From: a virus
Length of the DNA stretch: 64,000 bases
Direction: 5' to 3' (one strand)
Virus record (IMG/VR): IMGVR_UViG_3300048033_001096
Coordinates: 32,001-96,000 of that record
Shown piece by piece: positions 1 through 29,422 of this stretch. The notes beneath the pieces were generated by a model. That model saw only the letters and a program-made list of their open reading frames with translations. It did no database searches and was not told the origin of the DNA. Made by a program: the position numbers and the translations under genes. The number at the start of each line of letters is the position of its first letter. Positions within the stretch are counted from its first letter, which is position 1.

Positions 1-590
1 CTTGAATCATCGTACTTAGAATTAATCCTTTCGAATTCTTTTTTAACGTGTTCTGTTAATTTCCAACGAAACTCTATTTGTCTAATACTAGGCTTTTGTG
101 CCCAAAATATAATTGTATCTACAATATCTTCTAAAGGTGTGTTATAGTCACTAGTAAATGCTGTAGGATCGTCACTGTTAACTTCTGTGCCTTCTAAGAA
201 ACTTAAATCTAGATGTAATATAGGAATACCATTTGGATTGATGCTTTCTAAACGACATGCTTCTGCTAGTGCTTGTTTGTCGTGTACATAATCCGTAGGA
301 ATAAGTTCTGGATAGTGTCTACTCACACTTCCCATAACAACCATCATATCAACTTTGTCTTTGAGTGCATGAAATAGTTTTAGTTGCTGTTCGTCTCTAT
401 AAGCATTATTAATAAACAATTCTGCCCCAGTAGCTTCTTCAACAATTTTGTCAAAATCTTTTTCAATGTCATAGCTGTTGCTGCGACTCATACCTACAAT
501 TTCTCTACAACTAATTTCATTAAACTTATCGTAGATTGCTTTACCTATTCCATTAGTGTGTCCTGTTATAACTATTTTCTTTTCACTCAT
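1..590 (-). CDS. Short-chain dehydrogenase/reductase (SDR)-like protein, 3' end runs off the window
   Basis: Not in the ORF track; translated by hand from ATG at 590: MSEKKIVITGHTNGIGKAI...FINNAY...VMGSVS...YVHDK. Has TGxxxGxG, NNA, the catalytic Ser and YxxxK. No stop before position 1. Confidence 0.8.
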   Translation of the reverse strand, partial: MSEKKIVITGHTNGIGKAIYDKFNEISCREIVGMSRSNSYDIEKDFDKIVEEATGAELFINNAYRDEQQLKLFHALKDKVDMMVVMGSVSRHYPELIPTDYVHDKQALAEACRLESINPNGIPILHLDLSFLEGTEVNSDDPTAFTSDYNTPLEDIVDTIIFWAQKPSIRQIEFRWKLTEHVKKEFERINSKYDDS

Positions 591-1029
591 TGATATTATA
601 TCCTATAAATGTTATGTCTGGATTATCTAACCAAAACTGTATACTGTTTGCAACCATTTGGTAATTGCGATAACTGCTACTAGTCAACTGTAAATACAAC
701 ATAGGGTACTTGCTGTGTAATGCTAACTGCTGTACAGTTTTTTCTAGTTCCCACTTTTCTTTGCTGTACTTGGCCATTTCGGGATCAAAGTTTATTGCTG
801 CAATACTGCCCATTACAACCAACCTGCATTTATCTTTTAAACGTTCTACATACTCTATCTGATTAGCATGTGCATTTAGTATTACTACAGAGCCTTCTTC
901 AAATCCTGCTTCTATTATATCTTCAATGTCTGTAATTAAGTCTACGGGTCTACCTACAGTAACACATTTAAAATGATTTGCTAGGTATTCTCCTAGTCCT
1001 CGTGTAGCGCCTGTTATATAAAAATTCAT
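583..1029 (-). CDS. Minimal SDR-like Rossmann-fold protein (148 aa)
   Basis: ITGATRGLG, LNAH, VMGSIA and YSKEK (YxxxK); paralog of the adjacent SDR. Confidence 0.75.
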   Translation of the reverse strand: MNFYITGATRGLGEYLANHFKCVTVGRPVDLITDIEDIIEAGFEEGSVVILNAHANQIEYVERLKDKCRLVVMGSIAAINFDPEMAKYSKEKWELEKTVQQLALHSKYPMLYLQLTSSSYRNYQMVANSIQFWLDNPDITFIGYNINE

Positions 1030-2057
1030 TTTACTAATTTGTCTAAATTTTTAAAAAAATCTTCACCTAATTCTTTTTCAACAATATCTGCCATTTCGCT
1101 GTCCTCAAGTCTTTTTAACTTGCGGTACAACTGTACATTGGCACGTTGTATCTCCATAAACTTTTTAACATAAAATGGTTCGTCAAATGTTGGGTTCTTT
1201 TCTGGCATGAAATCCTCTCTATCAGTAAAACCTATACGCTCTCTTTCGCTAAAGAAACAACTTGCTATCCATTTTGTTCCTTTGGTAATTACTTTGCTTT
1301 CGTGTATGGTGCTCCAATTAGTAGCTTCATCATAACACTGTTTAAAATATAGTAAACTTCCTTTTTTAGGTTTTATGTCAACACCTAGCTTAGGAAAATA
1401 CGTTGTACCGCCTTCGTAGTCGTCGTTGAGATATAATATACCTGTACCTACTCTATCGTTTTTGCCATGACTGTAGTAATTAATTTTGTCTGGAAAATAA
1501 GGATAGTCGTGGTGCAAATCTAAATATCTGCCTACATCGTAATTGTATATGTCAATTGCTTCAATTAAAGAATACGGAAATCCGCAGTTATCTACTATTG
1601 CTTTTGCAATTACATTATAATGTACAGGATTCATTCCTAAACTAATTCCGCGCTGCTCTACATCTTCAGTTACTTGTGTATAACTTTCTTGACGGCTTTG
1701 CTTTCCACTATCTGGATTCATTCCATCTGCAATATGTTTTGCAATAATTGCATCACAAATGTCTTCTGATACTGCATTATCAAATACAACAATTAACGGC
1801 TCTTCGCAGTATACTCTGCCTTCATTCATGTTTAGTACAGGAGGCGCAATTGCTTCATCTTCTATTAAACTTATCTCTGTACAAAATTCTCTACCTTCAT
1901 AGAATGTTCTATTAAACGAAATACGCTGTCTTTCTTTTAGAGTCTTAGGTAGTGTTTGTACGTGATATTTTTCACATATAATTTGATCGCCTTTTTCAGT
2001 TTCTACAAATCCAAAACCTTTTGCGTCATTAAACCATTGTACTATTCCTGTTTCCAT
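1026..2057 (-). CDS. Cold-shock domain fused to a prolyl-4-hydroxylase-like Fe(II)/2OG dioxygenase
   Basis: N-terminal GIVQWFNDAKGFGFV (CSD RNP1). C-terminal HHDY...LYLNDDYEGGTTYFP...KPKKGSLLYF...HES...GTKW. Start moved to ATG 2057 (TAATG overlap with the upstream stop); the ORF track starts at 2072. Confidence 0.85.
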   Translation of the reverse strand: METGIVQWFNDAKGFGFVETEKGDQIICEKYHVQTLPKTLKERQRISFNRTFYEGREFCTEISLIEDEAIAPPVLNMNEGRVYCEEPLIVVFDNAVSEDICDAIIAKHIADGMNPDSGKQSRQESYTQVTEDVEQRGISLGMNPVHYNVIAKAIVDNCGFPYSLIEAIDIYNYDVGRYLDLHHDYPYFPDKINYYSHGKNDRVGTGILYLNDDYEGGTTYFPKLGVDIKPKKGSLLYFKQCYDEATNWSTIHESKVITKGTKWIASCFFSERERIGFTDREDFMPEKNPTFDEPFYVKKFMEIQRANVQLYRKLKRLEDSEMADIVEKELGEDFFKNLDKLVK

Positions 2058-2590
2058 TACCATGCATTCCAAATATACTTAGGTGCAGTTCCGCAGTTTG
2101 TTCCTGCATGCCACAACTTTCTGTTTTCCCATCTGAATGTTTCACCTTGCGCTCTATTATAAAGACACTTATCATCTACTATAAAAATGTGTCCCCATTG
2201 AGGCTTACCTATATGTGAATGATACCGAGGACACTCTGGCAAGTTTGCTTCATCGTCGTGTACGTCCCAGTGTATAGGAGCAAACCGTCCTGGCCAAACT
2301 CTACTGATCCATACATTATTACATTCTAATTTGTAATACTTATTCCACGCATCGACAATGCTTTGGTCAAACTGCTTGCCTGGAATAAACATATCCCATC
2401 CTGCGGTGCCACCTTCTTGTACAGTTTTGTATCCTGCTTCTTCCCACATATCTAATATAGGATCTAACCCCGGAACAGTGTCACCTCTTTTATGACTAGG
2501 ACCAACATACTCTGGCTCAGTGTTTTCTAAATCTCGAATAACACTATCCCAGTCAATAACATGACTACAACTTCCAATACTTCTTACCAT
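2057..2590 (-). CDS. Cupin/Fe(II)-2OG oxygenase-like protein
   Basis: PGRFAPIHWDVHD...WHAGTNCG (HxD...H). Start placed at ATG 2590 (TAATG overlap). Paralog of the next gene. Confidence 0.7.
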   Translation of the reverse strand: MVRSIGSCSHVIDWDSVIRDLENTEPEYVGPSHKRGDTVPGLDPILDMWEEAGYKTVQEGGTAGWDMFIPGKQFDQSIVDAWNKYYKLECNNVWISRVWPGRFAPIHWDVHDDEANLPECPRYHSHIGKPQWGHIFIVDDKCLYNRAQGETFRWENRKLWHAGTNCGTAPKYIWNAW

Positions 2591-3159
2591 TACCTCGGCC
2601 TTCCTAAAAAATGAAACAAGTACTGGTGATGTGTGCCGCAACTTGTACCTGCATGATAACTTCTGTAGTTGTCCCATTCGTAAACAGCGCCTTGTTCTAC
2701 ATTATGAAAACATTCGTCTTCAAGTATAAGCACACTGCCCCATCGAGGCTTGTCCATAAAACATACCCAACGCTTTAGTTCGCCTTGTGCTAACCATTCT
2801 TCTTCTTTGTCTTCTACGTCCCAATGATAAGGAACATTGCGTCCAGGTGCAACATCACTTACAAACACTCTAAGCGGATCTGCATTAACCAAGTCTGCAA
2901 ACTTGTTTTGTATTTTGATATCAAAGTGTTCGCCCGGATAGTAATCGTGCCAAATAATATCTTCTAATTTATACCCTGCTCGTTGCCATGTATCCATTAT
3001 GCTTCTGTAAGACTCTAACAACGTGCCTTCTGCTTCTGCTTCGCTACGATCAACAACACTTGTTACTGTGTTTTCGTCGCCGTCATTACATTGTTCGCAT
3101 AACTTGACTATTGGATCCCAGTCTATAATTCCATCTGTTGTACCGAAGTATTTAGGCAT
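2590..3159 (-). CDS. Cupin/Fe(II)-2OG oxygenase-like protein
   Basis: PGRNVPYHWDVED...YHAGTSCG (HxD...H); collinear similarity to 2057-2590. Confidence 0.7.
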   Translation of the reverse strand: MPKYFGTTDGIIDWDPIVKLCEQCNDGDENTVTSVVDRSEAEAEGTLLESYRSIMDTWQRAGYKLEDIIWHDYYPGEHFDIKIQNKFADLVNADPLRVFVSDVAPGRNVPYHWDVEDKEEEWLAQGELKRWVCFMDKPRWGSVLILEDECFHNVEQGAVYEWDNYRSYHAGTSCGTHHQYLFHFLGRPR

Positions 3160-3829
3160 TAAACAATTCCTTGTATATGTAACTCATATCTTGATCTCCC
3201 CATTTGACATGTGTGCCTAAACTACGCTTAAACATTTTTTCTAAATTTAAGACACTATCAACTGCTGCACCTGTTTCTTCTAACCTAAACTGAGCAGTTT
3301 CATGTATAATACCTTGCATGTATTTTTCTTCAATATACGGTTCGTCAATAGGCACACATCCGTACCAGTCAATTGCTCGCATATTTCCATCATCACTAAT
3401 GTAATGACAGTGTGGATACATAGTTAACTTATAAATGCCTTCATCGTATTGATCTAGCATGATATCTTTAATTTGTTTACGCCATTGTTGCTCAGGCCAT
3501 TCTTTCCCACTGTATATTATTTGATTGCAGCTAACATCGTACCACTTAATATAAATTTTTCTATTTTTGTAATCAACGTCTAATACTTCGGGCGCATAAG
3601 GTTTGTCTTTGAATATCTCTAAATATGTTAGTTCGTTAAAGAAAAACCATTCTGCTACTTCATCTGTATATAACGGACGATTGCTTGTTTCTCTATACTG
3701 ATATTCATTGGGCCAAGAATAATTCTTACAGAACGTTTTGCCGTCAGCACTTACTAATGGCTCATAAGTTTGTTGAGCCATACAAAGATGTCCTTCTTCG
3801 CTTAGTTTAAGATACGGAGTCCACTGCAA
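3152..3829 (-). CDS. Protein-kinase-like fold protein with a degenerate catalytic loop
   Basis: FCKNY...NELTYL...YAPEVLDVD...GIYKLTMYPHCHYISDDGNMRAIDWYG has the spacing of kinase subdomains II-VII, but the HxD/N residues are absent. Confidence 0.45.
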   Translation of the reverse strand: MQWTPYLKLSEEGHLCMAQQTYEPLVSADGKTFCKNYSWPNEYQYRETSNRPLYTDEVAEWFFFNELTYLEIFKDKPYAPEVLDVDYKNRKIYIKWYDVSCNQIIYSGKEWPEQQWRKQIKDIMLDQYDEGIYKLTMYPHCHYISDDGNMRAIDWYGCVPIDEPYIEEKYMQGIIHETAQFRLEETGAAVDSVLNLEKMFKRSLGTHVKWGDQDMSYIYKELFNA

Positions 3830-4463: not shown

Positions 4464-4468
4464 AGAAA

Positions 4469-4485
4469 TATTTAACCAATAAGTA
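4469..4485. promoter_or_regulatory. Back-to-back late-promoter-like hexamers: TAAATA (minus, 4469-4474) and TAAGTA (plus, 4480-4485)
   Basis: 27-bp divergent gap; each hexamer sits 5 nt before an ATG, with no Shine-Dalgarno. Confidence 0.5.
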
Positions 4486-4490
4486 AGTGT

Positions 4491-5165
4491 ATGAAACTAT
4501 TCTTGAATTCGGAGTGGAAGCGTATAGGAATTAGTCTTAGCGGTGGGGCAGATAGTGCTTTACTAGCATATCTTATACTAAAAGAAACTAACGCAGATAT
4601 CTATTTTACTACACAAATACGTATGTGGAAGACTCGTCCTTGGCAGCGTTATATTGCACAAGATGTTGTCAAATGGTTTGAAGAACGTTTTCCAAATCGA
4701 ATAGAACATATAGAAGGATTTATTCCTCCTGAAATGGAAGAGCCGCATACTACTAATATTAAAGACGAATACGGAAAATTAAAATCAGGTAATCGTATTA
4801 TACTCAGAGCGCATAACGAATGGGTTATACACACTTATAATCTCGATGCATGGTATGCTGCCGTTACACAGAATCCAGAAGACGTACCTGGTGGTCCAGA
4901 AGAACGATACGAAGGCGTATTACCATTACATATGAAACATATGGGAGTTGACATCTGTCATCCTTTCGTGTATACTACTAAGGACTGGATTGTCAAAGAA
5001 TATAACAATGAAAATATTTTAGACTTGCTTAACATAACACGTAGTTGCGAAGGTGAGTTTGAAGGATTAGATTATACAACATATACACCAAGACAAATTG
5101 TTCCTACTTGCGGAAAATGTTTTTGGTGTAAAGAACGAGAGTGGGCTATTGAGCAAAACAAATAG
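4491..5165 (+). CDS. QueC-like PP-loop ATP pyrophosphatase
   Basis: ISLSGGADS PP-loop and a C-terminal TRSC...CGKCFWC Zn-binding motif. Confidence 0.75.
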   Translation: MKLFLNSEWKRIGISLSGGADSALLAYLILKETNADIYFTTQIRMWKTRPWQRYIAQDVVKWFEERFPNRIEHIEGFIPPEMEEPHTTNIKDEYGKLKSGNRIILRAHNEWVIHTYNLDAWYAAVTQNPEDVPGGPEERYEGVLPLHMKHMGVDICHPFVYTTKDWIVKEYNNENILDLLNITRSCEGEFEGLDYTTYTPRQIVPTCGKCFWCKEREWAIEQNK

Positions 5166-6420
5166 TTGTACATTTTGTATGCATCCTTTTACAGGACTTG
5201 CTACACGAGAAGACGGTGCTATCAAAGTATGCTGTCGCAGCCAACCTATTGGATTTATACAAAATGAAACCCTAGAAGAAGTTTGGAACGGTGATGCTAT
5301 GCGTGAAGTGCGTAGGCAAGTGCTAAACAACGAGCGCCCGGACGTATGTAAACCGTGCTTTGACTTAGAAGATCAGGGTGTACAGAGTTTACGACAGCGT
5401 CATACAGCAGGAGTAATACCAGAAGCTAGGATCAACTTATATCCAAATGCACTAGATGCATTAGACGACGATTACAGCATGCCGTTTGAGCTTCCTACGA
5501 TGGAAATCAAACTTAACAATTTGTGTAATTTAAAGTGTCGTATGTGCAACCCACTTGACAGTACAAGTTGGAAAGACTGGGATCAAGTAACTGAGTTTTA
5601 CAAAAAAGAAGATAACATTCTCATTCCTATTGTTGACAAACTTACTACTAAACCGGGTCAGTATATTGGTCCTTTTGACAATAGTGATAATTGGTGGGAA
5701 TCATTTGAAAAACTTTTGCCTCACTTTAGGCGTGTAGAGTTTGCAGGTGGGGAGCCACTGATGGACCCATATCATTATAAAATACTTGACAAACTTGCTG
5801 AGTACGGTGATAACATAGAACTAAAGTACGCTACAAACGGCACTACGCTAGGTATTAAAGGCGGACGTACTATACACGACTATTGGCCTAAGTTTAAAAG
5901 TATTGCTGTAAACGTAAGCATAGACGGCTTACACGACACATATGAATACATTAGAGGTAATGGTAAGTTTGAGGAAATAGAAGAAAATATTAAAGTGTTT
6001 AAGGCATTTCCTAACGTAACTAGAGTAGTTGGTGCGTTTACTGTACAAGCAAACAATATAATGCAGATTGATAGTGTTATTGATTACTTTATTAACAAAC
6101 TAGGCATTGTGTTTTATTCACACCGTGTTAATTATCCTATGGCACTAAGTGCGCAGGTGTTACCTCCTAAATTAAAAGAACGTGTAGTACGCAAACTAGA
6201 AATGATGAAGGCAGGTGTACTAGAATATACTGCTATAAAAGAAAACAAGTTGCTCGAAACTGTTACATTACAACAAATACAAGATAACATCAATTTTTTA
6301 GAAGCAAAATGTATGTACGACACACATTGGCAAGACTGTATTAACTTTAATCGTGCGTTAGACAAAACTCGCAATCAAGACTTTCTTGCTGTAAATCCAG
6401 AGTTTAAACCGTATGTATAA
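5149..6420 (+). CDS. Radical SAM enzyme with an N-terminal Twitch/SPASM-like Cys domain
   Basis: CNLKCRMC and FAGGEPL; N-terminal FCMHPF...DG...CC...CKPC. Likely start TTG 5149 (track: 5098). Confidence 0.9.
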   Translation: MSKTNSCTFCMHPFTGLATREDGAIKVCCRSQPIGFIQNETLEEVWNGDAMREVRRQVLNNERPDVCKPCFDLEDQGVQSLRQRHTAGVIPEARINLYPNALDALDDDYSMPFELPTMEIKLNNLCNLKCRMCNPLDSTSWKDWDQVTEFYKKEDNILIPIVDKLTTKPGQYIGPFDNSDNWWESFEKLLPHFRRVEFAGGEPLMDPYHYKILDKLAEYGDNIELKYATNGTTLGIKGGRTIHDYWPKFKSIAVNVSIDGLHDTYEYIRGNGKFEEIEENIKVFKAFPNVTRVVGAFTVQANNIMQIDSVIDYFINKLGIVFYSHRVNYPMALSAQVLPPKLKERVVRKLEMMKAGVLEYTAIKENKLLETVTLQQIQDNINFLEAKCMYDTHWQDCINFNRALDKTRNQDFLAVNPEFKPYV

Positions 6421-7315
6421 AGTTACATCAAAATGGCCGCATCAAGATTCAATTAAAGTTGAGTGGAATTTAGGAAAACGCTGCAATTTAGATTGTGCAT
6501 ATTGTCCTGCAGAAATACACGATAACTTTAGTCCACATACTAATATTAAAGTATTGTTAGACACTGTAGATGCACTAGCAGAATTAGATAAACCTATACG
6601 AGTAAGTTTTACTGGAGGGGAGCCATGTATACATCCAGACTTTGAAGAACTTATTAAACATGCACGTCAAAGATTAGATTGGATTAATGTAACTACTAAC
6701 GGACTACGTAAGGCAGAATGGTATGCAGAAGCCCCAGTAGATCACTATGTGTTTAGTTTACATTTTGATAACGAACACTGGGAACGTGCTATGGATAATA
6801 TAATGTTCTTTGCACAACACAATGAAAACTTAGATAGAATTCCTTTTCAAGTCAATGTAATGGCACATCACGAACATATGGATCGTGTTAAACTTGCTGT
6901 TGCACGGTTTCACGGACATAACATGCCTTACGTAATAAGACGCATACGATGGACACAAGCAGAGGATCGTGATTGGTTTGACGATATGCGTTACACAGGT
7001 AAAGACTTAGAATGGATTTTAAAAACTAATGCTACTGCATTACCTAACTGTGTAATAGACGAACACAAACTAAAGCATGCTAACGATATTATAAAAGAAA
7101 ATCTAAATAATTTTGAAGGATGGAATTGCGCTGCTGGTGTAGAAAGCCTAATGATTAATTGGGACGGAGAAGTACATCGTGCTACTTGTCGTGTAGGCGG
7201 AAGTTTAGGCAATATTTATGATGGTAGCTTTGAGGCTCCTAACGAATGGGTTACATGCACACGCAAATGGTGTACTTGTGCTGCGGATATTCCTCTTACA
7301 AAGATTGAATCTTAA
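6413..7315 (+). CDS. Radical SAM enzyme with a C-terminal SPASM/Twitch-like domain
   Basis: CNLDCAYC, FTGGEP, TTNG; C-terminal WNCAAG...DGEV...CR...CTRKWCTC. Confidence 0.9.
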   Translation: MYKVTSKWPHQDSIKVEWNLGKRCNLDCAYCPAEIHDNFSPHTNIKVLLDTVDALAELDKPIRVSFTGGEPCIHPDFEELIKHARQRLDWINVTTNGLRKAEWYAEAPVDHYVFSLHFDNEHWERAMDNIMFFAQHNENLDRIPFQVNVMAHHEHMDRVKLAVARFHGHNMPYVIRRIRWTQAEDRDWFDDMRYTGKDLEWILKTNATALPNCVIDEHKLKHANDIIKENLNNFEGWNCAAGVESLMINWDGEVHRATCRVGGSLGNIYDGSFEAPNEWVTCTRKWCTCAADIPLTKIES

Positions 7316-8261
7316 TTTTATCTAACAATTGTTCGGGCTGACAACCACAAAAATCTACATCACATATTTTTGGTTTAATTACAGGATTAAATTTTTCTGT
7401 AAACTTAGGATCATTTAGGTTATAGTTTTCAAACAATACTGTTCGACAGGCACCTGTTATACGACCGTCTTTATCAATGTAAACATTGTCAACGCCTACA
7501 TTACATAACCACCCTTTAAAATAATTTTGTTTATTTAACCCTATCCAATTTCTATTTACAGTTTTTTTCTTACCATTGTCAAGAACTACTTTAGGGTCTC
7601 GTTTTAAATTTTTGAGATGTTTTAATATCCAAATAGGATTAGGAAAACGTTTTACTGGTTTGCTAATAAATTTTAATTGCTCAGGTGTATAATGAATTGT
7701 ATTGTGCATTACTTCCATAGCATTAATAAACCATCTGCGCTTACTGTATTTTAATTGTTTAATTATACTAACACACTTATCCCAGGCAAACGGATCCATT
7801 AGTACCATTGCATTTACTACTGAGCCTTTATCATAAACTATATCAGCAACTTTTTTAAGATGATCTATATCTGCGTACTCGTGGTGTACACTAATCATTA
7901 CATCGTCAAAATATTTTGCATACTGATCCCACCAACGTAAAGTACGGCTTCCGTTTGTACTAATACTAACCCAAGAATTATAATTATGTTTAAGTTGTTC
8001 TACAAACTCTCCTAATGCAGGCCACAATGTCGGCTCTCCGCCAACTATATGAATTTCAAATCGTTCTTTACCATAAGACTTATAATGATTTAACAAATGA
8101 AAAAAGTTTTTTGTTGTGCTATTTAGATCACCTGTCCATCTGTAATCACCTTCGTTAGAACCTTTAAAGCAATACCAACATTTGTGGTTACAAGTGTTTC
8201 CAATCATAAATTCTATTCTTAATGTTTTTGGATCTTGTGAGTTTATTACTTGTGTAATCAT
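7296..8261 (-). CDS. Radical SAM enzyme with a C-terminal SPASM/Twitch-like domain
   Basis: CNHKCWYC, GGEPT, STNGS; C-terminal WLCNVG...C...CDVDFCGC. Start placed at ATG 8261 (ATGA overlap). Confidence 0.9.
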   Translation of the reverse strand: MITQVINSQDPKTLRIEFMIGNTCNHKCWYCFKGSNEGDYRWTGDLNSTTKNFFHLLNHYKSYGKERFEIHIVGGEPTLWPALGEFVEQLKHNYNSWVSISTNGSRTLRWWDQYAKYFDDVMISVHHEYADIDHLKKVADIVYDKGSVVNAMVLMDPFAWDKCVSIIKQLKYSKRRWFINAMEVMHNTIHYTPEQLKFISKPVKRFPNPIWILKHLKNLKRDPKVVLDNGKKKTVNRNWIGLNKQNYFKGWLCNVGVDNVYIDKDGRITGACRTVLFENYNLNDPKFTEKFNPVIKPKICDVDFCGCQPEQLLDKIKIQSL

Positions 8262-14188: not shown

Positions 14189-14194
14189 TATATT

Positions 14195-14223
14195 ATAGTA
14201 CACTCATTCATACATCATGTCAA
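14195..14223 (-). promoter_or_regulatory. Sigma70-type promoter internal to the cluster
   Basis: TTGACA (14223-14218) - 17 nt - TACTAT (14200-14195), just upstream of the repeat glycosyltransferase. Confidence 0.55.
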
Positions 14224-16673: not shown

Positions 16674-17979
16674 TGCTATCCCACCATTCCTTGCCTGCGT
16701 CACTTAGTGTGTCTCTAAATGTGACATCTTGTGTTCTAATACTTTCTAAGAACAATATGTTCTTCTTACCTCTGCGCCAGCCGTCTGCATAGTTAATGTA
16801 TTCTTCTTCAAATGTTTTGCGCTCTAGCATATTTTCAAGTGTTTCTTGATAGACACGAGTTTTATGTGTTACTCTAGGCTTGATATAGTCCAACAGTTTG
16901 TGTATTTGTTCATCTAATACATGTCTCGGCAAACACATAGGACTCATAAGTACACTAGGATCAAATGCAAAGGTAATTTTAAAGTAGCTCTTTACATCTA
17001 GCTCGGTAACTACGTCGAACATACGCTGTAAATCAAAAAGTCCTGGTGTTGTTAGTGTAACATCAAACACCATTGCGTCATTGCCGTACTTGTCAATAAG
17101 AAACATACCATCTTTAAAGTTTTGTAGCCACTCGTTCCATTTGAGTCCTGTTCTAATGTACTCGCCAACAGCACCTACACCGTCTATACTGGCACAAATA
17201 TTAACACGTTTAAAGTTGTCTAACATTTCATACAGTTTATAGTCTTTGTAGTGTGTCCTACTCAAGTTTGTATTGTAGCGTACAACTACATCTTGGCTTT
17301 TTCCTTCATTAACTAGCTGTTGCATAATGCGCCAATGTATGTCATACATAAGTGGCTCGCCGCCTACCCAGTATAACTCCTCTACAATGCCTTTATCAAC
17401 TGCTGTTTGTAGTTCTGTTTCAAGAACTTCCTTTTGAAATGTAGCAATCTTCTTTCGTGTATCAGGTTGCATCCATTTTTCACGATCAAGGTTGACTACA
17501 TTGTGTTTTATCTTTTCTGTTTCCCAACTAGAGCTTAGTTGCTCGCCACACATACGACATTTAAAGTTGCACAAGTTTGAAATACGATAGTCATAACTTA
17601 TAGGCTGCATAGTTGTATAACCATCAGAGTCGGTTTTTGCAATAATATCGTCGATTTTGTGTGGGAAAAGTGTGTTAGTAAAATAATTTTTGTATGTATG
17701 AAGATTTAGTACTTGATTATTGCAAACATCGCATTGACTAATCTTCTCTCCTGCAAGAATGCGTTTTCTAATGTCTTTCATGTATTCGCTATTCCAGTGT
17801 TCTTCTAGACTTACTGGTGCAAATTCTGCATTGTCGTTGTCGCCTGCGTCTATATATTGCTTTTGAAAACTTGCATCTTCACGACTTGCACAACACAATC
17901 TACGCTCGCCTTGCGGGCTAACGTATGTATGTGTCCAAGGTGCTGTACAAAAGTATGGTCCTAAGTTTTTATCAGTCAT
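16666..17979 (-). CDS. Radical SAM enzyme with an N-terminal Twitch-like domain
   Basis: FCTAPW...CC...CDVC; CNFKCRMC; WVGGEPL. Confidence 0.9.
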   Translation of the reverse strand: MTDKNLGPYFCTAPWTHTYVSPQGERRLCCASREDASFQKQYIDAGDNDNAEFAPVSLEEHWNSEYMKDIRKRILAGEKISQCDVCNNQVLNLHTYKNYFTNTLFPHKIDDIIAKTDSDGYTTMQPISYDYRISNLCNFKCRMCGEQLSSSWETEKIKHNVVNLDREKWMQPDTRKKIATFQKEVLETELQTAVDKGIVEELYWVGGEPLMYDIHWRIMQQLVNEGKSQDVVVRYNTNLSRTHYKDYKLYEMLDNFKRVNICASIDGVGAVGEYIRTGLKWNEWLQNFKDGMFLIDKYGNDAMVFDVTLTTPGLFDLQRMFDVVTELDVKSYFKITFAFDPSVLMSPMCLPRHVLDEQIHKLLDYIKPRVTHKTRVYQETLENMLERKTFEEEYINYADGWRRGKKNILFLESIRTQDVTFRDTLSDAGKEWWDSIE

Positions 17980-18973
17980 TTATATGTTGTAATACCAAAT
18001 CTTCATAATCTTTGTCAAATCGTCCATAAGAATAATAATAAGAGTCTTCGATACCATCTTCAATTAATGTAATTTTGTCTACATCATCAAATTTTCCTTG
18101 AATATGTTGTTTTACAAAATCATGGTCAATGTCAACAACAGATCCTAATTTTGCAAACCCAAGTCTTAAAGACTTATCATTAATATCTAATCCTTGATTA
18201 ATTATCCAGTTATTAAAATCATTTATAGTATCTTGCCCCATGTCTGGCGATAATCGTAATAAACAGTCTCCAGACAAAAGTTTTATAGGTTCTACATGCT
18301 CGTCATCTAATTCTTCGTCTTCTTCAACAAATGCTTCAAAGTGTGTTTTACCAATTTGAGGATATCCTAACAGTACATCTCCAAACTTAACATCTGTTCT
18401 AAATAACTCATCAAACACACTAGGTAATTTTTCTAAATTTTTAGGTGCTCGGTGCCAAGATACATTAACATGAATTCTTCCATCACCGGTTTGTTGTAAA
18501 ACTGTATGTAATTCATGTACTTCAAGATTTAAACGACAAATTGCAGCACGTACTTCTGGTGTTGCAATATACATATAATTTGATGTATTGTGTGCAGGGC
18601 CTGAAAGTATTGGAAAATAATTATGTATAGTATTCATTTTTTTATTATTAGGACCGTGTTTGAAATCTTCCAAACTTAATCTTTCAGAAATATCAGGATT
18701 TTTGCTTACAGAAAAATGTTTGTTACTGTTTTCAACAAAGTCGTATTTAGAGATAGTATCTAATGTACTATTAATCTTGTCTATCATTTCTTCTACAGTT
18801 AAAACACTTTCTCCCATAAAAAGATGTTCTTTTTTAAGAAAGGCTTTAGATTTTAGTTCGTATTTAAATCTATCAAGCCATAAATCAACAGCAGGATGTT
18901 GATCTAACTTAATGCTTACTTCCATAGGCTGAATGGACGAATCTCTGCTATTTCTAAATCTTAGTTTTATCAT
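17972..18973 (-). CDS. Hypothetical protein (333 aa) embedded among radical SAM genes
   Basis: Long ORF overlapping its downstream neighbour. His-containing helices (MNTIHNYF, LNLEVHELH) and FGDVLLGYPQIGKT; no family recognised with confidence. Confidence 0.7.
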   Translation of the reverse strand: MIKLRFRNSRDSSIQPMEVSIKLDQHPAVDLWLDRFKYELKSKAFLKKEHLFMGESVLTVEEMIDKINSTLDTISKYDFVENSNKHFSVSKNPDISERLSLEDFKHGPNNKKMNTIHNYFPILSGPAHNTSNYMYIATPEVRAAICRLNLEVHELHTVLQQTGDGRIHVNVSWHRAPKNLEKLPSVFDELFRTDVKFGDVLLGYPQIGKTHFEAFVEEDEELDDEHVEPIKLLSGDCLLRLSPDMGQDTINDFNNWIINQGLDINDKSLRLGFAKLGSVVDIDHDFVKQHIQGKFDDVDKITLIEDGIEDSYYYSYGRFDKDYEDLVLQHIND

Positions 18974-18986
18974 CTTTAACTTTCTA

Positions 18987-20435: not shown

Positions 20436-21801
20436 TCCATTCCTCTAATAAGTGTGCATATTGCGGAAATATTTCTGCAAAATCTTTATTTCTTCTCTTA
20501 TCGTATGTATGTATGTATCGTACAAAGTCTTGTCTGTGTTCTATTGCTGGCTGCGATGTACGAAGGTAGTCACACAAACGTTTTATCTGATCCCATTCTT
20601 CAAGATATAGTCTAGCATACTTTTCTTTTGAATAATATTTTAACCATTGTTCGCACATCAGTTGAATAGTATTTGCTGTTTTTTCTCTATCTTCTATATC
20701 TAATAGTGTACATTGTAAATGCGGAGGCCAGTGCATAATATTAATACTTAAAGGAATTCTATTATGTTCAAAAGTTGTATTATATAATTTACGAAAATCC
20801 ATAACTAACATTATAAAATCAAGAAATGTTGATAAACTTAAAATATTAACAGTTGTCATAATTGCAACTGTGCTTTTAGTTTCTTTTAAAATACGCTCTG
20901 TATTTTCAATCCAACTGTAATAATTTAGTCCATCTCGTGCGTACTCAGCTTGTCTGCCTGTGCTTTCTAAACTTGTATACACATCTACTTTAACACCTAC
21001 TTCTGCAAGAGCATTAATTTTTTCAATTAACTTGTCAATTAATTTAGTTTCTACACATGCATTGGTATTGATTGCAACATCTAAGCCTTTGCGTGGATTT
21101 TCAATTAGATAGTCTAGCAACTTCCATGTATCTTTTGACATTGTAGGCTCACCGCCTGTAATGCGCAATACTTTTAAATGCGGAAGTGCATCAGGAAACC
21201 ATTTCCAAAATGCTTCTACATAAGGATTATGTTCTCTATTTAGATAAGGCATTTTGCCTGATTTTTCTAAGTAGTCTAAATGATGGGCGCCGTGCTTAGT
21301 TGGGTACGGTCCGTGCTGTTTTACATCTTCCATCCATTTGCTACTGATTTCGGGCGAACAGTACGCACATGCAAAATTGCAAGCATTACTAAACGAAACT
21401 TCTAAATAACTTGGATATACGTTTTCTGCAGGGTCACTAGATGCTATTTCTTCAAATCTATCCCATGCCCACGTATCTGATGTTTTATAATGTCTATCAC
21501 TAAAATATGTTTTATCTAAATCTTCAATCTTCCAACAGTAACCGCACTCGCTAGGACGTTCTCCGTTTAGCATCTTAGCACGTTGTTCTTTTTTAAACTT
21601 GCTGTTGTGTAGTGCTGCTGGATCTGCTTCAATTTCTTCTAGTGGAATCTTATGAGGTGCAGGATGGTGACAACTGTGGTTATAACCGTTCTGAAGCATA
21701 AGTGTAGTTTGTAGCCATTTAGCCGTACAGAAACTACAACTAACGTTGTTTATCTTTTCACGTTTCTCTTCTAGTATTTTTATACGTTCTTCGTTACTCA
21801 T
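20428..21801 (-). CDS. Radical SAM enzyme with an N-terminal Cys/His domain (paralog of 18987-20435)
   Basis: SFCTAKW...SCHHP...CGYCW; CNFACAYC; ITGGEPT. Confidence 0.9.
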   Translation of the reverse strand: MSNEERIKILEEKREKINNVSCSFCTAKWLQTTLMLQNGYNHSCHHPAPHKIPLEEIEADPAALHNSKFKKEQRAKMLNGERPSECGYCWKIEDLDKTYFSDRHYKTSDTWAWDRFEEIASSDPAENVYPSYLEVSFSNACNFACAYCSPEISSKWMEDVKQHGPYPTKHGAHHLDYLEKSGKMPYLNREHNPYVEAFWKWFPDALPHLKVLRITGGEPTMSKDTWKLLDYLIENPRKGLDVAINTNACVETKLIDKLIEKINALAEVGVKVDVYTSLESTGRQAEYARDGLNYYSWIENTERILKETKSTVAIMTTVNILSLSTFLDFIMLVMDFRKLYNTTFEHNRIPLSINIMHWPPHLQCTLLDIEDREKTANTIQLMCEQWLKYYSKEKYARLYLEEWDQIKRLCDYLRTSQPAIEHRQDFVRYIHTYDKRRNKDFAEIFPQYAHLLEEWNG

Positions 21802-22298
21802 TTTAAAAGATACTTAAAGTTTTGTGTTGTACTGTTAATAGCAATTTGTTTGGCTCCGTTTCTAATATGAAAGTGTGTTGCCATAGGAGTGAGCGGAGAG
21901 AGTGTAACTAGGTTCTTTACTTCTGGTTTTGTTTTTATATGTTCTGCAAGTTTGTGTATCAGCTCTTTTCCTGCACCACGTTTACGGCTCCAAATAGTAT
22001 ATGCTATTGCAGTGTCTGCATCATTTTTATAAAATGCATTTTGACTCATTAAGTCAAGTTCTTTTACACTAGTAGGAATATCGTTAGTGTATGCTACACA
22101 AACAACACCTTCTATGTCACCTTCATACTTGAGCCCGTAAATTTTACGTCCACAAGCTGTTCGCCATTCTACATCAAGTTCAGGACGTACAGGATCTTCT
22201 GTTACATCTATATCTTCTAACTCAACTAGTTCTGTACCTTTAACCCATCTAAAAAATCCGTCTAGTGTACCTTTATATTTTTCTACATTTTTATTCAT
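21798..22298 (-). CDS. GNAT-like acyltransferase
   Basis: YTIWSRKRGAGKELI (acetyl-CoA motif A-like, RxxGxG) and ATHFHIRNGA (motif B-like). Confidence 0.5.
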   Translation of the reverse strand: MNKNVEKYKGTLDGFFRWVKGTELVELEDIDVTEDPVRPELDVEWRTACGRKIYGLKYEGDIEGVVCVAYTNDIPTSVKELDLMSQNAFYKNDADTAIAYTIWSRKRGAGKELIHKLAEHIKTKPEVKNLVTLSPLTPMATHFHIRNGAKQIAINSTTQNFKYLLK

Positions 22299-23191
22299 TT
22301 AGCTCTCCGTAAAATTCTAGCACTGTTTTGATACACTTGTTTAAAGAACTTACTTTGCTCGTCGTCTAACGGTTTAGTAGAAATATCAACTCCTGTGCCT
22401 TTAAGTATTTCTAAACCTAAACGCTCTGCTTCTTCCTGTGGGTTTAAATTTTTTACATCACTTTCCCAAAAGTTGTTTAGCCATTCAAAGTCACGTACAT
22501 TAGCATAGTCCCAGTCTGTACAGTTTGTCATATAACAACCTTGTCGTGCGCCTAGTATGCTCCACATACCATTTTCTACATCTGCACCTATTTGACTCCA
22601 TATAAGCAGTCTGTCATAATTCTGCCACCATACTGTGCGTAAGTCATCTACTTTTGCGCCTTGATCCAAAGACATCTTAACGCCTTCCCTAAAGCCAGCC
22701 CGCCAAGCCTGCCAAGGTGTCGCATTAGTATAAGAAACACTGTAGTTTTCGTTAAACTGATAATATTTGTTGTCGAAGCAGAATTCAACTTTGCCACGTT
22801 CGTCTCCTTCTTCTGAGTTTTCGTGCGTTTTCATATTGTGTACAAATTTACGTGTCCACATTTTAAGTCCGCCGTTTCCGTACATTAATCCATTAACATG
22901 TACTTTGCCGCACCAACTAAACACATGGTCAGGAGTAACACCTAATTCTTCAATGTCCACTTCTTGGTTAAGAAACTCTTGGTCAATAATATTATCAGCA
23001 TCTACTGTAACAAAGTATTCTGTTTCAGACAAGTCAGCACAGGCTTTATGTGCAGCATCACTTCCGTGTACGCCGTGTACTCGTTTAGCCCATGGAATTT
23101 TGCTACACAAATCTGCATAGTTTTTTTCAGCATTAGGCTCATCGTAACTAAGGAATATTATATCTTGATCTACTATTTTAATTTTTGACAT
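22295..23191 (-). CDS. GT-A (GT2-like) glycosyltransferase
   Basis: DIIFLSYDEPNA...AH...FVTVDAD (DxD)...YGNGGLK...AWRAGFREG; paralog of the last domain of 12254-14188. Confidence 0.7.
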   Translation of the reverse strand: MSKIKIVDQDIIFLSYDEPNAEKNYADLCSKIPWAKRVHGVHGSDAAHKACADLSETEYFVTVDADNIIDQEFLNQEVDIEELGVTPDHVFSWCGKVHVNGLMYGNGGLKMWTRKFVHNMKTHENSEEGDERGKVEFCFDNKYYQFNENYSVSYTNATPWQAWRAGFREGVKMSLDQGAKVDDLRTVWWQNYDRLLIWSQIGADVENGMWSILGARQGCYMTNCTDWDYANVRDFEWLNNFWESDVKNLNPQEEAERLGLEILKGTGVDISTKPLDDEQSKFFKQVYQNSARILRRAK

Positions 23192-23748
23192 TAACTTTCC
23201 ACTATATGATTATAATTTTCAAAGGCTTTACCACAGTATACACTCACATCCTGTCTTTGAGCAACTTCTTTTTTTGTATGGTTAATAACTTTTCTATCAC
23301 CATTCATAATATCAGAAAAGTTTACTTCAAGTGTATCTAATAACACATTAGGATCATTTTCGTCTGTTACAAACAGTCTATGAATTTTATCTTTATAGTA
23401 AAGCGTACTTTTTAATATTTTTTTCAACCCGTCTGATGCACTTGCGGTCCAGGTGCCTTCGGTAATATTTTGCGTAATATAAAAAACTAAATTATGATCA
23501 ATTTTGCCTTTTACTAATTGATGTATACTTTTATCAACATCAAAATCTTCTAAACTTGAGTGTTTGAATTTTAGTTCAAACATAGAATCAGTTTCGCTTG
23601 GAACTACTATATAATCTTCAAAATTCTTTCGACATTCAGCAAAATCATACAATAACGATTTATCAATTTCCATATACGGAGAACTTTCATCTAAAACATT
23701 TCCAGCCTTCCATATAGTACCGTTTTCTCTAAAGTTAAGATAATACAT
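23191..23748 (-). CDS. Hypothetical protein (185 aa)
   Basis: Overlaps both neighbours in the operon; no motif recognised. Confidence 0.7.
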   Translation of the reverse strand: MYYLNFRENGTIWKAGNVLDESSPYMEIDKSLLYDFAECRKNFEDYIVVPSETDSMFELKFKHSSLEDFDVDKSIHQLVKGKIDHNLVFYITQNITEGTWTASASDGLKKILKSTLYYKDKIHRLFVTDENDPNVLLDTLEVNFSDIMNGDRKVINHTKKEVAQRQDVSVYCGKAFENYNHIVES

Positions 23749-24571
23749 AATCTAATTTCTCTATAATAGTATCTGTTAAGAACTCGTCTTCAACATAGTG
23801 CAATAATCCTGTTTGTAAAAAATTACCTAATAGTAAATTTCCATCATTTCTATAATATTTTCCAACTACAGATGTCCACTTTTCTGGTACATTTTTCCAA
23901 TTTTGTACATGAGGTTTCATGTGTGTAAATGTAATATAGCTGTTTGGACTTGTAATCTCTTTTTCATTTCCTAGTATTTTACAAGCAATAGCTGCACAAA
24001 CATCAACACTACACCATTTTTGATATCTTTCTTTAGCATATTTGCTGTAAAAAAGTTCCCAGTTATTCATTATAATTTCTAACAAGGTATAAAATTCTTT
24101 TGCAGTATCACCTTTTTTAAAATAATGCAATGCGCTGTATAAGTTAGGTAAATTATTAGCATCAAACGTTTTTCTATAAAATCTATTAGTTACAACTTCA
24201 TTTCTATAAGTTTTAACATTACTAGTAAAAAATAAATTGTATTTGTCTAATTCTTTCCACCAATGTGTTATATCACTTAAAATAAGCATATCTGCTTCAA
24301 GTACAATTGTTTGTTCGTATGGACTAGCATGATACACCTTCCATCTATTTTGTATCTTCCAATCTGATTGTAGAGCGCCGTCAGACCAAGGGATAGGAAT
24401 AATCTTATCAAATACTTTTTGCCATTCGTCTGGCACTATATCATTAGTAATTAAACTAATGCGCTGTCCAGTATTATACTTGTGCAAACTTAATGCTAAA
24501 GCATGAGCTTGTTTTATATAATCTGTCTTTCCGTTATTTTGAGCTAACAAACAAAACCCTTTACTCATCAT
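23735..24571 (-). CDS. GT-A (GT8-like) glycosyltransferase with an ExD variant motif
   Basis: GFCLLAQN...DY..QA..LA...SPYEQTIVLEADML...HMK. Confidence 0.65.
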   Translation of the reverse strand: MMSKGFCLLAQNNGKTDYIKQAHALALSLHKYNTGQRISLITNDIVPDEWQKVFDKIIPIPWSDGALQSDWKIQNRWKVYHASPYEQTIVLEADMLILSDITHWWKELDKYNLFFTSNVKTYRNEVVTNRFYRKTFDANNLPNLYSALHYFKKGDTAKEFYTLLEIIMNNWELFYSKYAKERYQKWCSVDVCAAIACKILGNEKEITSPNSYITFTHMKPHVQNWKNVPEKWTSVVGKYYRNDGNLLLGNFLQTGLLHYVEDEFLTDTIIEKLDYVLS

Positions 24572-25415
24572 TAAGTGCCTCGCTTATTGCCCTATCTAAA
24601 CTAAACTTATTCATAATATGTATATTAGCTTTATTAATTGTAGACAATACATAATGTCCTTTCCAATCTTTTTTATCTAACATAAAAACATATTTTTCAT
24701 CATTCATTTTAACTAATACATCATTATCGGTAGTAAACCACAATTTGCCTGGCATTGCTTTTGGCCAATTTGTTTTTTGATTACCGTTCATTAAATGAAT
24801 TGCAATACTAAAACTAAAATCGTTACGATATGTTTTACTTGGTATTTGATATACAAGACGATAATAAAGCCAATTTTCTTTAATATGTTCGATTAAATTA
24901 AAAAATAGTTCTGTACGTTTTGACTTTTTAAAATAAAATACAGTTGCCCAGTAAAAATCAACACTTCGGTCACTAATTTTATCAAATGTATCAGTTCGTT
25001 CTGGATTTAAATCTTGGATATCTCTAAAGATTAAAAAATCATCTTCAGTATCAAATGCATTATTTAATAAATTATTTCCTACAATAAAATCAGTGTCCAT
25101 TACAATAGTTTCATCATACGGAGTAATATTATAAACTGTACTCCTATCATGATTACGCCATTCTAATATTCTATCACTCATTGTACCGTCTCTATAAATT
25201 CGTTTTTGATTACATTCTTTCCACTCTAAAGAAACAATAGTATCAATATATTTTTTGTAATAAGGATAATTTTCTTTAAGGTATGCAGGATTATCTGTTG
25301 CTATTGTAACAGACAGTCCTAAATGTTTTTTGATTTTTTTTGCACAAAAAATAGCTTGTTTGACATAGTCCATTGTGTGATTATTTTGCGCAAATAAAAC
25401 TACACCCTTTGTCAT
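24561..25415 (-). CDS. GT-A (GT8-like) glycosyltransferase
   Basis: GVVLFAQN...DY..QA...TPYDETIVMDTDF (DxD)...RND...HIMNK. Confidence 0.65.
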   Translation of the reverse strand: MTKGVVLFAQNNHTMDYVKQAIFCAKKIKKHLGLSVTIATDNPAYLKENYPYYKKYIDTIVSLEWKECNQKRIYRDGTMSDRILEWRNHDRSTVYNITPYDETIVMDTDFIVGNNLLNNAFDTEDDFLIFRDIQDLNPERTDTFDKISDRSVDFYWATVFYFKKSKRTELFFNLIEHIKENWLYYRLVYQIPSKTYRNDFSFSIAIHLMNGNQKTNWPKAMPGKLWFTTDNDVLVKMNDEKYVFMLDKKDWKGHYVLSTINKANIHIMNKFSLDRAISEALNDE

Positions 25416-25759
25416 AAATTAATTAATCCTTCAACAGATCGATTACTTTTAATTTCGTTATAGCTATCTAAGTATTCATATGTTGTAGTAAAATAGATAT
25501 CAAGTATATCGTCTGTAAACTTTTGTAAATCTTCTACTTTAATCGGAGTTTCGTTGTCGTCTATTATAATTGCTTCAGTTTGTTTATTTTGTATTAAAGT
25601 GTGACAGAATGTAATAAGGTCTCTGTTAACTGTAAATTTTCCACCATTTAAATAATGTACACAATTTTCTAAAAATTGTTCGTGTATAATACGCTTTTGA
25701 TTATTCAACGTTGTCATGTAATTTGAAAAATCTAATGCATTTTGTAGCCGTTCGTCCAT
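25412..25759 (-). CDS. Hypothetical protein (115 aa), first gene of the enzyme operon
   Basis: GGAGG ribosome-binding site and a consensus promoter directly upstream. Confidence 0.8.
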   Translation of the reverse strand: MDERLQNALDFSNYMTTLNNQKRIIHEQFLENCVHYLNGGKFTVNRDLITFCHTLIQNKQTEAIIIDDNETPIKVEDLQKFTDDILDIYFTTTYEYLDSYNEIKSNRSVEGLINL

Positions 25760-25783
25760 AAGAAACCTCCAAGTATATGTATA

Positions 25784-25812
25784 ATTATATACTCAGTTTA
25801 TAATCTTGTCAA
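25784..25812 (-). promoter_or_regulatory. Consensus sigma70 promoter driving the enzyme cluster
   Basis: TTGACA (25812-25807) - 17 nt - TATAAT (25789-25784) in a 60-bp intergenic gap. Confidence 0.85.
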
Positions 25813-26887: not shown

Positions 26888-26890
26888 TAA

Positions 26891-27811: not shown

Positions 27812-27837
27812 TTAAGTTATCCTATTATATGCTAGTA

Positions 27838-29382: not shown

Positions 29383-29407
29383 TCGTTAAACCCCTAATGC
29401 GATATTG

Positions 29408-29413: not shown

Positions 29414-29422
29414 TCTGTCTTG

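Follow-up and report, generated by a model that had tools for sequence, protein, structure and literature searches.

The question raised by this locus is what a phage would do with a tightly packed block of radical S-adenosylmethionine (rSAM) enzymes set directly beside its tail fibre genes. The block, referred to here as the island, lies in the IMG/VR record IMGVR_UViG_3300048033_001096, a viral contig of 169,231 bp with a CheckV completeness of ~46%. The stretch that was analysed, the window, is the 64,000 nucleotides from 32001 to 96000 of that record. Positions are those of the window unless given as contig positions, which follow the numbering of the 169,231-bp record, and negative window positions lie upstream of the window edge. 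We favour the view, with a probability of roughly 55%, that the island is pieced together, as a mosaic, from cassettes of soluble cytoplasmic enzymes whose task is to make and edit a glycan or glycoconjugate of an unusual kind.

Within the window the island consists of 28 open reading frames (ORFs) at 3-25759, with ends that mostly overlap or nearly abut in the ORF list; 25 are on the - strand and three, at 4491-7315, on the + strand. An earlier sequence-only reading of the window had counted the same 28 genes and had noted, correctly, that the cluster adjoins fibre genes and continues past the window edge. A further 17.7 kb lies beyond that edge, as far as contig 14298 (window -17702). The whole island therefore amounts to 43.4 kb and 49 genes, in which genes overlap or are separated by gaps of less than 65 nt, and its 15 rSAM genes are all that the contig carries. 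It is bounded upstream by an Mtd_N-type fibre gene and on the other side by five fibre-like genes, and is co-oriented with the adjoining fibre genes.

Ten genes in the window carry the CxxxCxxC motif and had been read as rSAMs with an additional Cys-rich domain. Pfam and NCBIfam confirm all ten, and all have extra Cys clusters, six in the form of a 4-Cys N-terminal twitch domain and four as Cys clusters at the C-terminus. Nine score above the Pfam Radical_SAM cut-off; the gene at 18987-20435 falls below it, but reaches 302 bits against the NCBIfam model NF033640. They are listed here, where core denotes a gene retained in the related phages described below and branch support is given by the Shimodaira-Hasegawa-like approximate likelihood ratio test (SH-aLRT).

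5098..6420, + strand: N-terminal-twitch rSAM (NF033640, 335 bits), core gene; 74-84% identical in relatives, groups with Bdellovibrionales genes (SH-aLRT 90)
6413..7315, + strand: short rSAM of family B, core gene; PF04055 E 3e-14, Cys at 259, 282, 287 and 289
7296..8300, - strand: rSAM of family B, core gene; PF04055 E 1.4e-13, paralog of 6413-7315
8258..9661, - strand: N-terminal-twitch rSAM, core gene, 380 bits; groups with Parcubacteria and Pseudobdellovibrionaceae genes (SH-aLRT 100) at 45-47% identity
10257..11240, - strand: rSAM of family B, core gene; 49-51% identical to Bdellovibrionales and Parcubacteria cluster genes
11209..12270, - strand: rSAM with a C-terminal SPASM/twitch-like Cys cluster; PF04055, weak BlsE and tungsten-maturase matches, 32-35% identical to bacterial cluster genes; the only rSAM in the window with a richer C-terminal Cys set
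15495..16703, - strand: N-terminal-twitch rSAM, 346 bits; groups with Pseudobdellovibrio genes (SH-aLRT 96)
16666..17979, - strand: N-terminal-twitch rSAM, 318 bits; one clade (SH-aLRT 100) with Haliscomenobacter and Pseudobdellovibrio genes at 45-50% identity
18987..20435, - strand: N-terminal-twitch rSAM, 302 bits; one clade (SH-aLRT 100) with bacterial genes at 50-54% identity
20428..21801, - strand: N-terminal-twitch rSAM, 322 bits; 38% identical to the neighbouring rSAM

The model NF033640 (twitch domain-containing radical SAM protein, N_Twi_rSAM) accounts for nine of the 15 island rSAMs, the six in the window scoring 302-380 bits and three upstream 196-222 bits against a curated whole-protein cut-off of 170 bits. 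All nine N-twitch copies have an invariant C161, C165 and C168, which form the CxxxCxxC motif, and an invariant G231-P234 (GGEP, a SAM-binding motif). The auxiliary cysteines C28, C103 and C106 are also invariant, and a further Cys near position 47 is found in eight of the nine; these four fall short of a full SPASM domain, with its seven Cys and two auxiliary clusters. Pfam SPASM matches residues 11-106 of these proteins and BtrN's twitch domain aligns to profile positions 16-116 (E 2.5e-4), placing the domain that carries the auxiliary cluster ahead of the rSAM core. Against solved structures the N-twitch profile matched BlsE best (E 1.2e-8), followed by GDGT-MAS, SkfB, viperin-like enzymes and MoaA. 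Other rSAMs of the island include three of the short family B, with C-terminal Cys clusters, one that resembles BlsE and tungsten maturases, and one upstream with a B12-binding domain. Among metagenomic proteins (P0123-P0148) there are natural fusions of two or three N-twitch units, 800-1400 residues long, one of which adjoins GT1, GT2, DegT and PMT_2 genes.

The nine N-twitch paralogs are only 18-38% identical to one another. In a maximum-likelihood tree they take nine separate placements, and six of them fall in clades with bacterial genes from Bdellovibrionales, Parcubacteria and Haliscomenobacter clusters (SH-aLRT 90-100), a pattern which argues that the copies are old, distinct subfamilies and not recent duplicates. 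The family is large. A profile search of 1.84 billion representative proteins gave 7,704 clusters (at 50% identity) with E <= 1e-30. Bacterial genomes were scanned with a five-sequence alignment, the nine-paralog alignment A1 being too divergent for this, and among species-representative genomes the family was found mostly in Bdellovibrionota, and also in Parcubacteria, Haliscomenobacter, Paenibacillus and others, a list biased by the scan pattern. Single bacterial genomes carry 7-14 N-twitch copies, which are clustered.

Parts of the island recur in these bacteria as recognisable cassettes. The trio 10257-11240, 8258-9661 and 11209-12270 is found in Bdellovibrionales and Parcubacteria at 35-51% identity, and the block 14204-21801 has counterparts in Haliscomenobacter with partly the same order and up to 50% identity. 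The bacterial clusters that were inspected contain genes for handling carbohydrates. The neighbours are GT1, GT28, an aminotransferase, an AsnB-like amidotransferase, an aldo-keto reductase and a Kae1/carbamoyltransferase-like gene in Parcubacteria; GT1_3/GT28 in Bdellovibrionales; a carbamoyltransferase and DegT in Haliscomenobacter; GT1, GT2, DegT, PMT_2 and thiamine pyrophosphate-enzyme genes in a metagenome-assembled genome (MAG); and an acyl carrier protein, two ketosynthases, an AMP-ligase and GT2 in Paenibacillus. In one Parcubacteria MAG (a 1.7-Mb genome; CAWFCE010000002.1, ~822-849 kb) a one-strand operon of ~35 kb has at least 13 rSAM genes mixed with GT1, GT28, aminotransferase, AsnB-like and Kae1-like genes. 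In Bdellovibrionales (L104:383-2584 and L105:5667-8093) single proteins of 733-808 residues fuse Asp/Asn-hydroxylase-like and GT-A-like domains; the phage versions are separate genes at contig 20943 and 22547, with an rSAM between them in a three-gene operon.

The island is also conserved among phages. Relatives of the 8258-9661 rSAM, at 70-91% identity, are encoded on 268 IMG/VR contigs from aquatic metagenomes, and five long related contigs carry 15, 7, 10, 10 and 8 rSAM genes. A homologue at 79% identity is encoded on a contig of 354 kb. In the closest relative, G001, the island is largely collinear. All five relatives retain a core of ~12-14 genes, with identities of 40-90%, while other genes are gained and lost. 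Its members are the PP-loop gene; among the rSAMs, two N-twitch enzymes, three of the short family and the one like BlsE; a 200-residue and a 271-residue protein; one kinase-fold gene; two cupins; and the GT-A domains. In comparison with G001 the ratio of non-synonymous to synonymous substitution (dN/dS, Nei-Gojobori, with dS near saturation) is 0.03-0.16 for all 34 shared island genes, as against 0.08-0.13 for the neighbouring fibre genes. The island genes are intact and under purifying selection. The sequence-only reading had named scrambled gene content in relatives and relaxed selection as what would overturn it; with the conserved core and these dN/dS values, neither is seen. Its single multi-step pathway needs redrawing, since cassettes with their own bacterial counterparts around a shared core of ~12-14 genes make a mosaic, with swappable parts, rather than one fixed pathway. 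In a related phage contig (L188:6270-7816) two fatty-acid desaturase-family genes are inserted among the rSAMs of a homologous cassette.

Smaller sets of rSAM genes occur in cultured phages. Agrobacterium phage Atu_ph07 has three at the same genome position, behind the giant virion protein gp180, which belong to families other than NF033640; gp165, gp168 and gp171 (NC_042013.1, 116908-123069) are interleaved with hypothetical genes downstream of gp180. Vibrio phages K566/K567 have five N-twitch-like rSAMs.

The 4-5 glycosyltransferase-like proteins of the sequence-only reading become four in the window, each confirmed by a GT-A fold with DxD motif or by a GT8 profile. Counting a further domain upstream, at contig 22547, the island has at least five proteins with a GT-A fold.

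22295..23191, - strand: GT-A glycosyltransferase; AlphaFold model m346dc444cf17 with a predicted local distance difference test (pLDDT) score of 82.5, invariant D64 and D66 (alignment A6)
12254..14203, - strand: 649-residue protein with a C-terminal GT-A domain; C-terminus 33% identical to 22295-23191, DxD kept in A6
23735..24571, - strand: GT8 (glycogenin-like) glycosyltransferase; profile A8 matches glycogenin-1 (E 8e-6), DTD motif
24561..25415, - strand: GT8-like paralog; 26% identical to 23735-24571, profile A8

In Foldseek the model of 22295-23191 matched PBCV-1 A64R (probability 1.00), SunS and ppGalNAc-T at the top, followed by GlyE, TarP and RmlT; the probabilities for A64R, SunS, TarP and others were 0.9-1.0. 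The domain at contig 22547 (model m9cae1f42e973) is GT-A-like, with Z scores of 10-11, and no DxD motif is evident in its family alignment. For two island GT-A models A64R ranks first among the structural matches. A likeness of the contig-22547 domain to LH3 was considered as specific evidence and rejected, since in VIA-align LH3 is level with generic folds of the GT-A and nucleotidyltransferase kinds. Protein P0122 and profiles A6 and A9, searched by sequence and profile against PDB sequences, gave no match.

The other island genes in the window include oxygenases, a PP-loop enzyme and a kinase fold, and several proteins without a family match.

3..590, - strand: short protein of 200 residues resembling short-chain dehydrogenases/reductases (SDRs); weak adh_short match at the N-terminus (E 0.008); gene start 12 nt ahead of the window; 86% and 80% identical in relatives G001 and G003
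583..1029, - strand: 148-residue protein with an SDR-type nucleotide-binding motif, TGxxxGxG at residue 6; no Pfam or PHROG match
1026..2072, - strand: fusion of a cold-shock domain (PF00313, E 1.6e-7) and a 2-oxoglutarate (2OG)-Fe(II) oxygenase (PF13640, E 7e-10)
2057..2677, - strand: HxD..H cupin-like oxygenase of a four-paralog family, core gene; invariant H136, D138 and H190; 44-83% identical in all five relatives
2590..3159, - strand: HxD..H cupin-like paralog; 32% identical to 2057-2677 (alignment A3)
3152..3829, - strand: small protein-kinase-fold protein of 225 residues; family profile A7 matches the TTK kinase domain (E 9e-5); paralog of a core gene at contig 30101
3807..4463, - strand: Asp/Asn beta-hydroxylase-like cupin, core gene; PF05118 E 2.8e-4, just below the cut-off; HxD..H aligned with three paralogs
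4491..5165, + strand: PP-loop ATP pyrophosphatase with a QueC-like zinc ribbon, core gene; SGGADS, C-terminal CGKCFWC; 52-81% identical in all relatives
9658..10260, - strand: 200-residue protein, core gene; no family match, 56-73% identical in all relatives
14204..15562, - strand: 452-residue protein; homolog inside the Haliscomenobacter multi-rSAM cluster
17972..18973, - strand: 333-residue protein; homolog adjoins the matching rSAM in Haliscomenobacter, none in the five relatives
21798..22298, - strand: GNAT-fold-like protein; PF05292, malonyl-CoA decarboxylase C-terminal domain, E 3.5e-7, above the cut-off
23191..23748, - strand: 185-residue protein; no family match, conserved in G001 and L172
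25412..25759, - strand: 115-residue protein, the last gene ahead of the fibre genes; syntenic with fibre and glycosyltransferase genes in G001, G004, G005 and L172

Most of the enzyme assignments in the sequence-only reading are borne out by this list. Its four HxD..H oxygenases are 1026-2072, 2057-2677, 2590-3159 and 3807-4463; its kinase fold and GNAT-like protein are recovered by profile matches; and its QueC-like ATPase has the PP-loop SGGxDS and the CxxCxxC tail, though at 19.5 bits it is below the QueC cut-off of 22 and the match covers the C-terminal zinc ribbon only. The two SDRs are candidates, on the strength of a TGxxxGxG motif and one sub-threshold match, and the methyltransferase that had been placed in the cluster is not found inside the window, the only one noticed lying upstream at window -2851..-1889. 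The HxD..H cupins fall into two families of four members each, and the whole island has ~10 Fe(II)/2OG cupins. In 1026-2072 a nucleic-acid-binding cold-shock domain is joined to a prolyl-hydroxylase-type oxygenase, and relatives retain the oxygenase half only. At the far end of the island there are an ArnA-like NAD epimerase/dehydratase and a Ugd-like dehydrogenase, and a carbamoyltransferase is present on the same genome. As a lead, a language-model search puts the highly conserved 271-residue protein near viral Asp/Asn hydroxylase clusters.

A scan for hydrophobic segments found just one island protein with two of them, and no polytopic membrane protein and no Wzx/Wzy/WecA-type or Gtr-type protein was seen among the island proteins; the pathway therefore looks soluble. 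A Fe-S_biosyn (A-type carrier) gene was not found on the contig, where NifU/IscU were not searched for. In a more distant phage contig (L099:19821-20884) two A-type carriers and NifU adjoin a similar multi-rSAM island.

The sequence TATAAATA is depleted on the contig, with 10 copies against ~41 expected. Seven of the ten are within 70 nt upstream of the start of a gene on the same strand, three of these seven being in the island. Copies on the contig lie, for example, at window 27838, 15629, -2897 and -11684. By analogy with T4, from which the meaning is borrowed, these copies are apparent late-promoter boxes.

Glycan building is favoured because of the GT-A folds, the sugar-nucleotide enzymes and the bacterial counterparts among glycosyltransferase, aminotransferase and carbamoyltransferase genes. 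We infer the chemistry, the joint working of the genes and the acceptor, reading the enzyme roles from folds and families. The Ugd-like dehydrogenase, the NAD epimerase/dehydratase and the short SDR-like proteins would supply building blocks, and at least five GT-A-fold transferases would attach the sugars. The PP-loop enzyme, the kinase-fold protein, the GNAT-like protein and the ~10 Fe(II)/2OG cupins may amidate, phosphorylate, acylate and hydroxylate. The 15 rSAMs would each perform a radical step of their own, on either the sugar or its aglycone, with oxidation, epimerisation, deoxygenation, decarboxylation and C-C or C-methyl formation as candidates; the characterised twitch enzymes BtrN, BlsE and those of the AprD4 type carry out such radical steps. 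As the predicted acceptor we slightly prefer the fibre proteins of the phage itself, given the position of the island, the apparent late-promoter boxes and the likeness to protein-glycosylating GT-A enzymes, while host lipopolysaccharide (LPS) or another envelope glycolipid would be nearly as likely.

Several observations weigh against this reading. The product, acceptor and activities are predictions from gene content, and we know of no characterised member of NF033640. PHROG and NCBIfam searches of the non-rSAM island genes gave nothing useful, most of them having no family match in either. In 78 bacterial loci few standard GT1, GT2 or DegT genes were seen near N-twitch rSAMs, using a single-seed phmmer search of one iteration that is weak for divergent glycosyltransferases, so that the link to glycans depends on the few loci that were inspected. 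In two bacterial contexts, which lack such carbohydrate genes, a pair of rSAMs is accompanied by a small ORF in one case and by ThiF with a methyltransferase in the other. Protein hydroxylases are among the members of PF05118, the desaturases in the cassette of a relative point to lipids or unrelated auxiliary genes, and late-promoter use by this phage is carried over from T4.

An alternative that we consider unlikely is that the island directly matures virion proteins, in particular fibres. Hydroxylases and rSAMs would act on residues, by beta-hydroxylation, epimerisation or cross-linking, and the GT-A enzymes would glycosylate the new hydroxyls, much as collagen LH3 and mimivirus L230 glycosylate newly made hydroxyl groups. 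It would fit the fibre genes on both flanks, the possible late-promoter boxes, the Asp/Asn beta-hydroxylase family PF05118, the hydroxylase-like/GT-A-like fusion of Bdellovibrionales with its phage counterparts and an rSAM in one operon, and the protein or peptide glycosyltransferases (A64R, SunS, ppGalNAc-T, GlyE and LH3) that head the Foldseek matches of the GT-A models. The LH3 likeness, however, is non-specific, and no contig protein has a collagen-like G-X-Y run that might serve as an LH3-type substrate. Nor was any precursor or leader-like ORF found in the island, where no conserved small ORF is seen and there is no room between genes, and no island protein has a Pfam or NCBIfam match to a RiPP recognition element (RRE) or PqqD domain, though divergent RREs can escape such models. 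Together with an auxiliary domain that is a 4-Cys twitch and not a full SPASM, this weakens any reading modelled on peptides that are ribosomally synthesised and post-translationally modified (RiPPs). The nearest solved rSAMs are, moreover, mostly small-molecule enzymes.

Remodelling of the host envelope is in our judgement just as improbable. The island would alter the LPS core, lipid A or a surface glycolipid during infection, to block superinfection or stop progeny from sticking to debris, as has previously been proposed for the LPS gene clusters of marine T4-like phages. The GT8 enzymes, the small Kdo/WaaP-like kinase fold, the LpxO-family cupins and the Ugd and ArnA-like enzymes mirror the tailoring of LPS core and lipid A, to which the carbamoyltransferase on the same genome may be added. 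Core assembly uses soluble enzymes, which would suit the near-absence of membrane segments, and both the desaturases of the relative and the Paenibacillus context are lipid-like. Published work on pelagimyophages likewise favours a modified host O-chain (PMC7029224). The phage shows no sign of lysogeny, however, which is the setting where such host conversion is known, and membrane proteins of the Wzx/Wzy/WecA or Gtr types are not seen in the island. Virion assembly is a better fit than early exclusion for the possible late-promoter boxes and the co-orientation with the fibres.

It is rather less probable again that there is no pathway here, and that a variable fibre-module region has gathered unrelated auxiliary genes whose cassettes act independently on different host substrates. 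The rSAM content of 7 to 15 among relatives, with genes gained and lost, the separate bacterial counterparts of separate cassettes, the desaturase insertion in one relative and the description of the region as hypervariable (PMC7029224) would all be expected of such a region. The core kept in five of five relatives, the operon-like gene overlaps and the recurrence of the same gene families together in bacteria would not.

Hypermodification of DNA or nucleotides, for example to a 7-deazaguanine-type or thymidine-type base, had been an option in the sequence-only reading and is very improbable: the QueC-like PP-loop protein, the many rSAMs, a cold-shock/oxygenase fusion that could bind nucleic acid and a QueD-like gene in relative G003 would speak for it, but the contig (at ~46% of the genome, so that absence is not proof) has no tRNA-guanine transglycosylase (TGT)/DpdA and no QueD, QueD is likewise missing from G000, G001, G002 and G004, no QueE model exceeds 33 bits where the cut-offs are above 200 (260 for the best-scoring model), the QueC model matches the zinc-ribbon tail only, and the cold-shock fusion is not conserved in relatives.

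Returning to the glycan-editing mosaic, we would tentatively extend it to a pathway rich in rSAMs that decorates tail fibres (or rewrites a host receptor glycolipid) with heavily edited sugars, the N-twitch rSAMs being an unrecognised class of radical carbohydrate-editing enzymes. If this were true, a family of ~7,700 clusters spread over phages, Bdellovibrionota, bacteria of the candidate phyla radiation (CPR) and Bacteroidota would serve cell-surface recognition. The phage devotes ~12% of an estimated 370-kb genome to an island of oxygen-sensitive Fe-S enzymes among host-recognition genes, and this recurs in at least 268 viral contigs. Since the same cassettes stand beside sugar-handling genes in predatory and CPR bacteria, they offer a lead to new radical carbohydrate chemistry, and the island may account for the way in which marine phages tune their virion surface or the receptor on the host. 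Smaller versions are found in cultured phages, namely Vibrio phages K566/K567, Ralstonia phage RsoM2USA and Agrobacterium phage Atu_ph07.

The identity of the phage itself can be read from its structural genes.

25820..33489, - strand: five tail-fibre-like genes flanking the island; PHROG tail-fibre and tail-protein matches
34130..49993, - strand: 5287-residue virion protein adjoining the baseplate wedge; N-terminus 28-31% identical to virion structural proteins

Wedges of Atu_ph07, SCTP-2 and the Rak2/GAP32 group share 34-37% identity with the baseplate wedge of this phage. Over its first 1500 residues the 5287-residue protein is related to virion structural proteins that adjoin the wedge in Atu_ph07, Phosso and PA5oct. 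Pelagibacter phages and cyanophages are absent from the 94 and 92 records that match the wedge and the giant protein, respectively. From these likenesses the source is, on sequence grounds, a marine jumbo myophage of the Atu_ph07/PA5oct/Rak2 group, with a genome estimated at ~370 kb. A megablast of the island against 50,697 phage records gave no DNA match, and plasmids yielded just two partial rSAM matches. Three consecutive fibre-like proteins at 27841-33489 (- strand) have a common N-terminal module (phrog_15511/phrog_14394) and differing C-terminal parts.

How does the island compare with systems that are known? RiPP clusters with rSAM/SPASM enzymes likewise bring several rSAMs with auxiliary Fe-S domains together, and there are weak matches to many peptide-maturase models; the island, however, is without a precursor peptide, protease or exporter, gave no match to RRE models, has twitch instead of SPASM domains, and its bacterial counterparts lie beside carbohydrate genes. 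The likeness to BtrN, BlsE and MoaA, enzymes of sugar and nucleoside pathways, lies in the BlsE profile match and in the N-terminal domain that aligns with the auxiliary-cluster domain of BtrN, though the similarity is remote and the island rSAMs are permuted, with the twitch ahead of the core. As for the family NF033640 itself, nine island rSAMs have its N-terminal 4-Cys twitch, CxxxCxxC and GGEP motifs; what is different is the presence of nine deeply diverged copies in one phage island. Virion glycosylation, as by A64R of PBCV-1, the mimivirus fibril clusters and mycobacteriophage, also employs GT-A enzymes encoded beside structural genes. To our knowledge none of these chlorovirus, mimivirus and mycobacteriophage systems has radical SAM enzymes, and for the present phage virion glycosylation is a prediction.

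The sequence-only reading knew of no characterised phage pathway of this composition. A literature search for phage-encoded radical SAM found no paper, but rSAM cassettes have been noted before, without an assigned function. Pelagimyophages have a variable 'host recognition cluster' (HRC), with a mean of 44.6 kb, beside the giant VrlC protein; in marine pelagimyophages and cyanomyophages the HRC contains fibres, glycosyltransferase/LPS genes, Asp/Asn hydroxylases and radical SAM cassettes (Zaragoza-Solas et al, 2020, PMC7029224). A T4-like marine viral genome with 12 rSAM genes has also been mentioned (Nishimura et al, 2017, PMC5332604). In both studies the genes were noted without function, and the rSAM families and bacterial counterparts were not analysed. 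Like an HRC, the island is a large variable block set among structural genes, next to fibres and a giant baseplate protein, and has glycosyltransferase/LPS genes and rSAM cassettes. It differs in belonging to a jumbo myophage, with a baseplate like those of Atu_ph07, PA5oct and Rak2, and not to Tevenvirinae, pelagimyophages or cyanomyophages, and in having more rSAMs (15). The island is thus real, conserved and functional, and is a new, rSAM-rich variant of virus-encoded glycan machinery in a host-recognition island.

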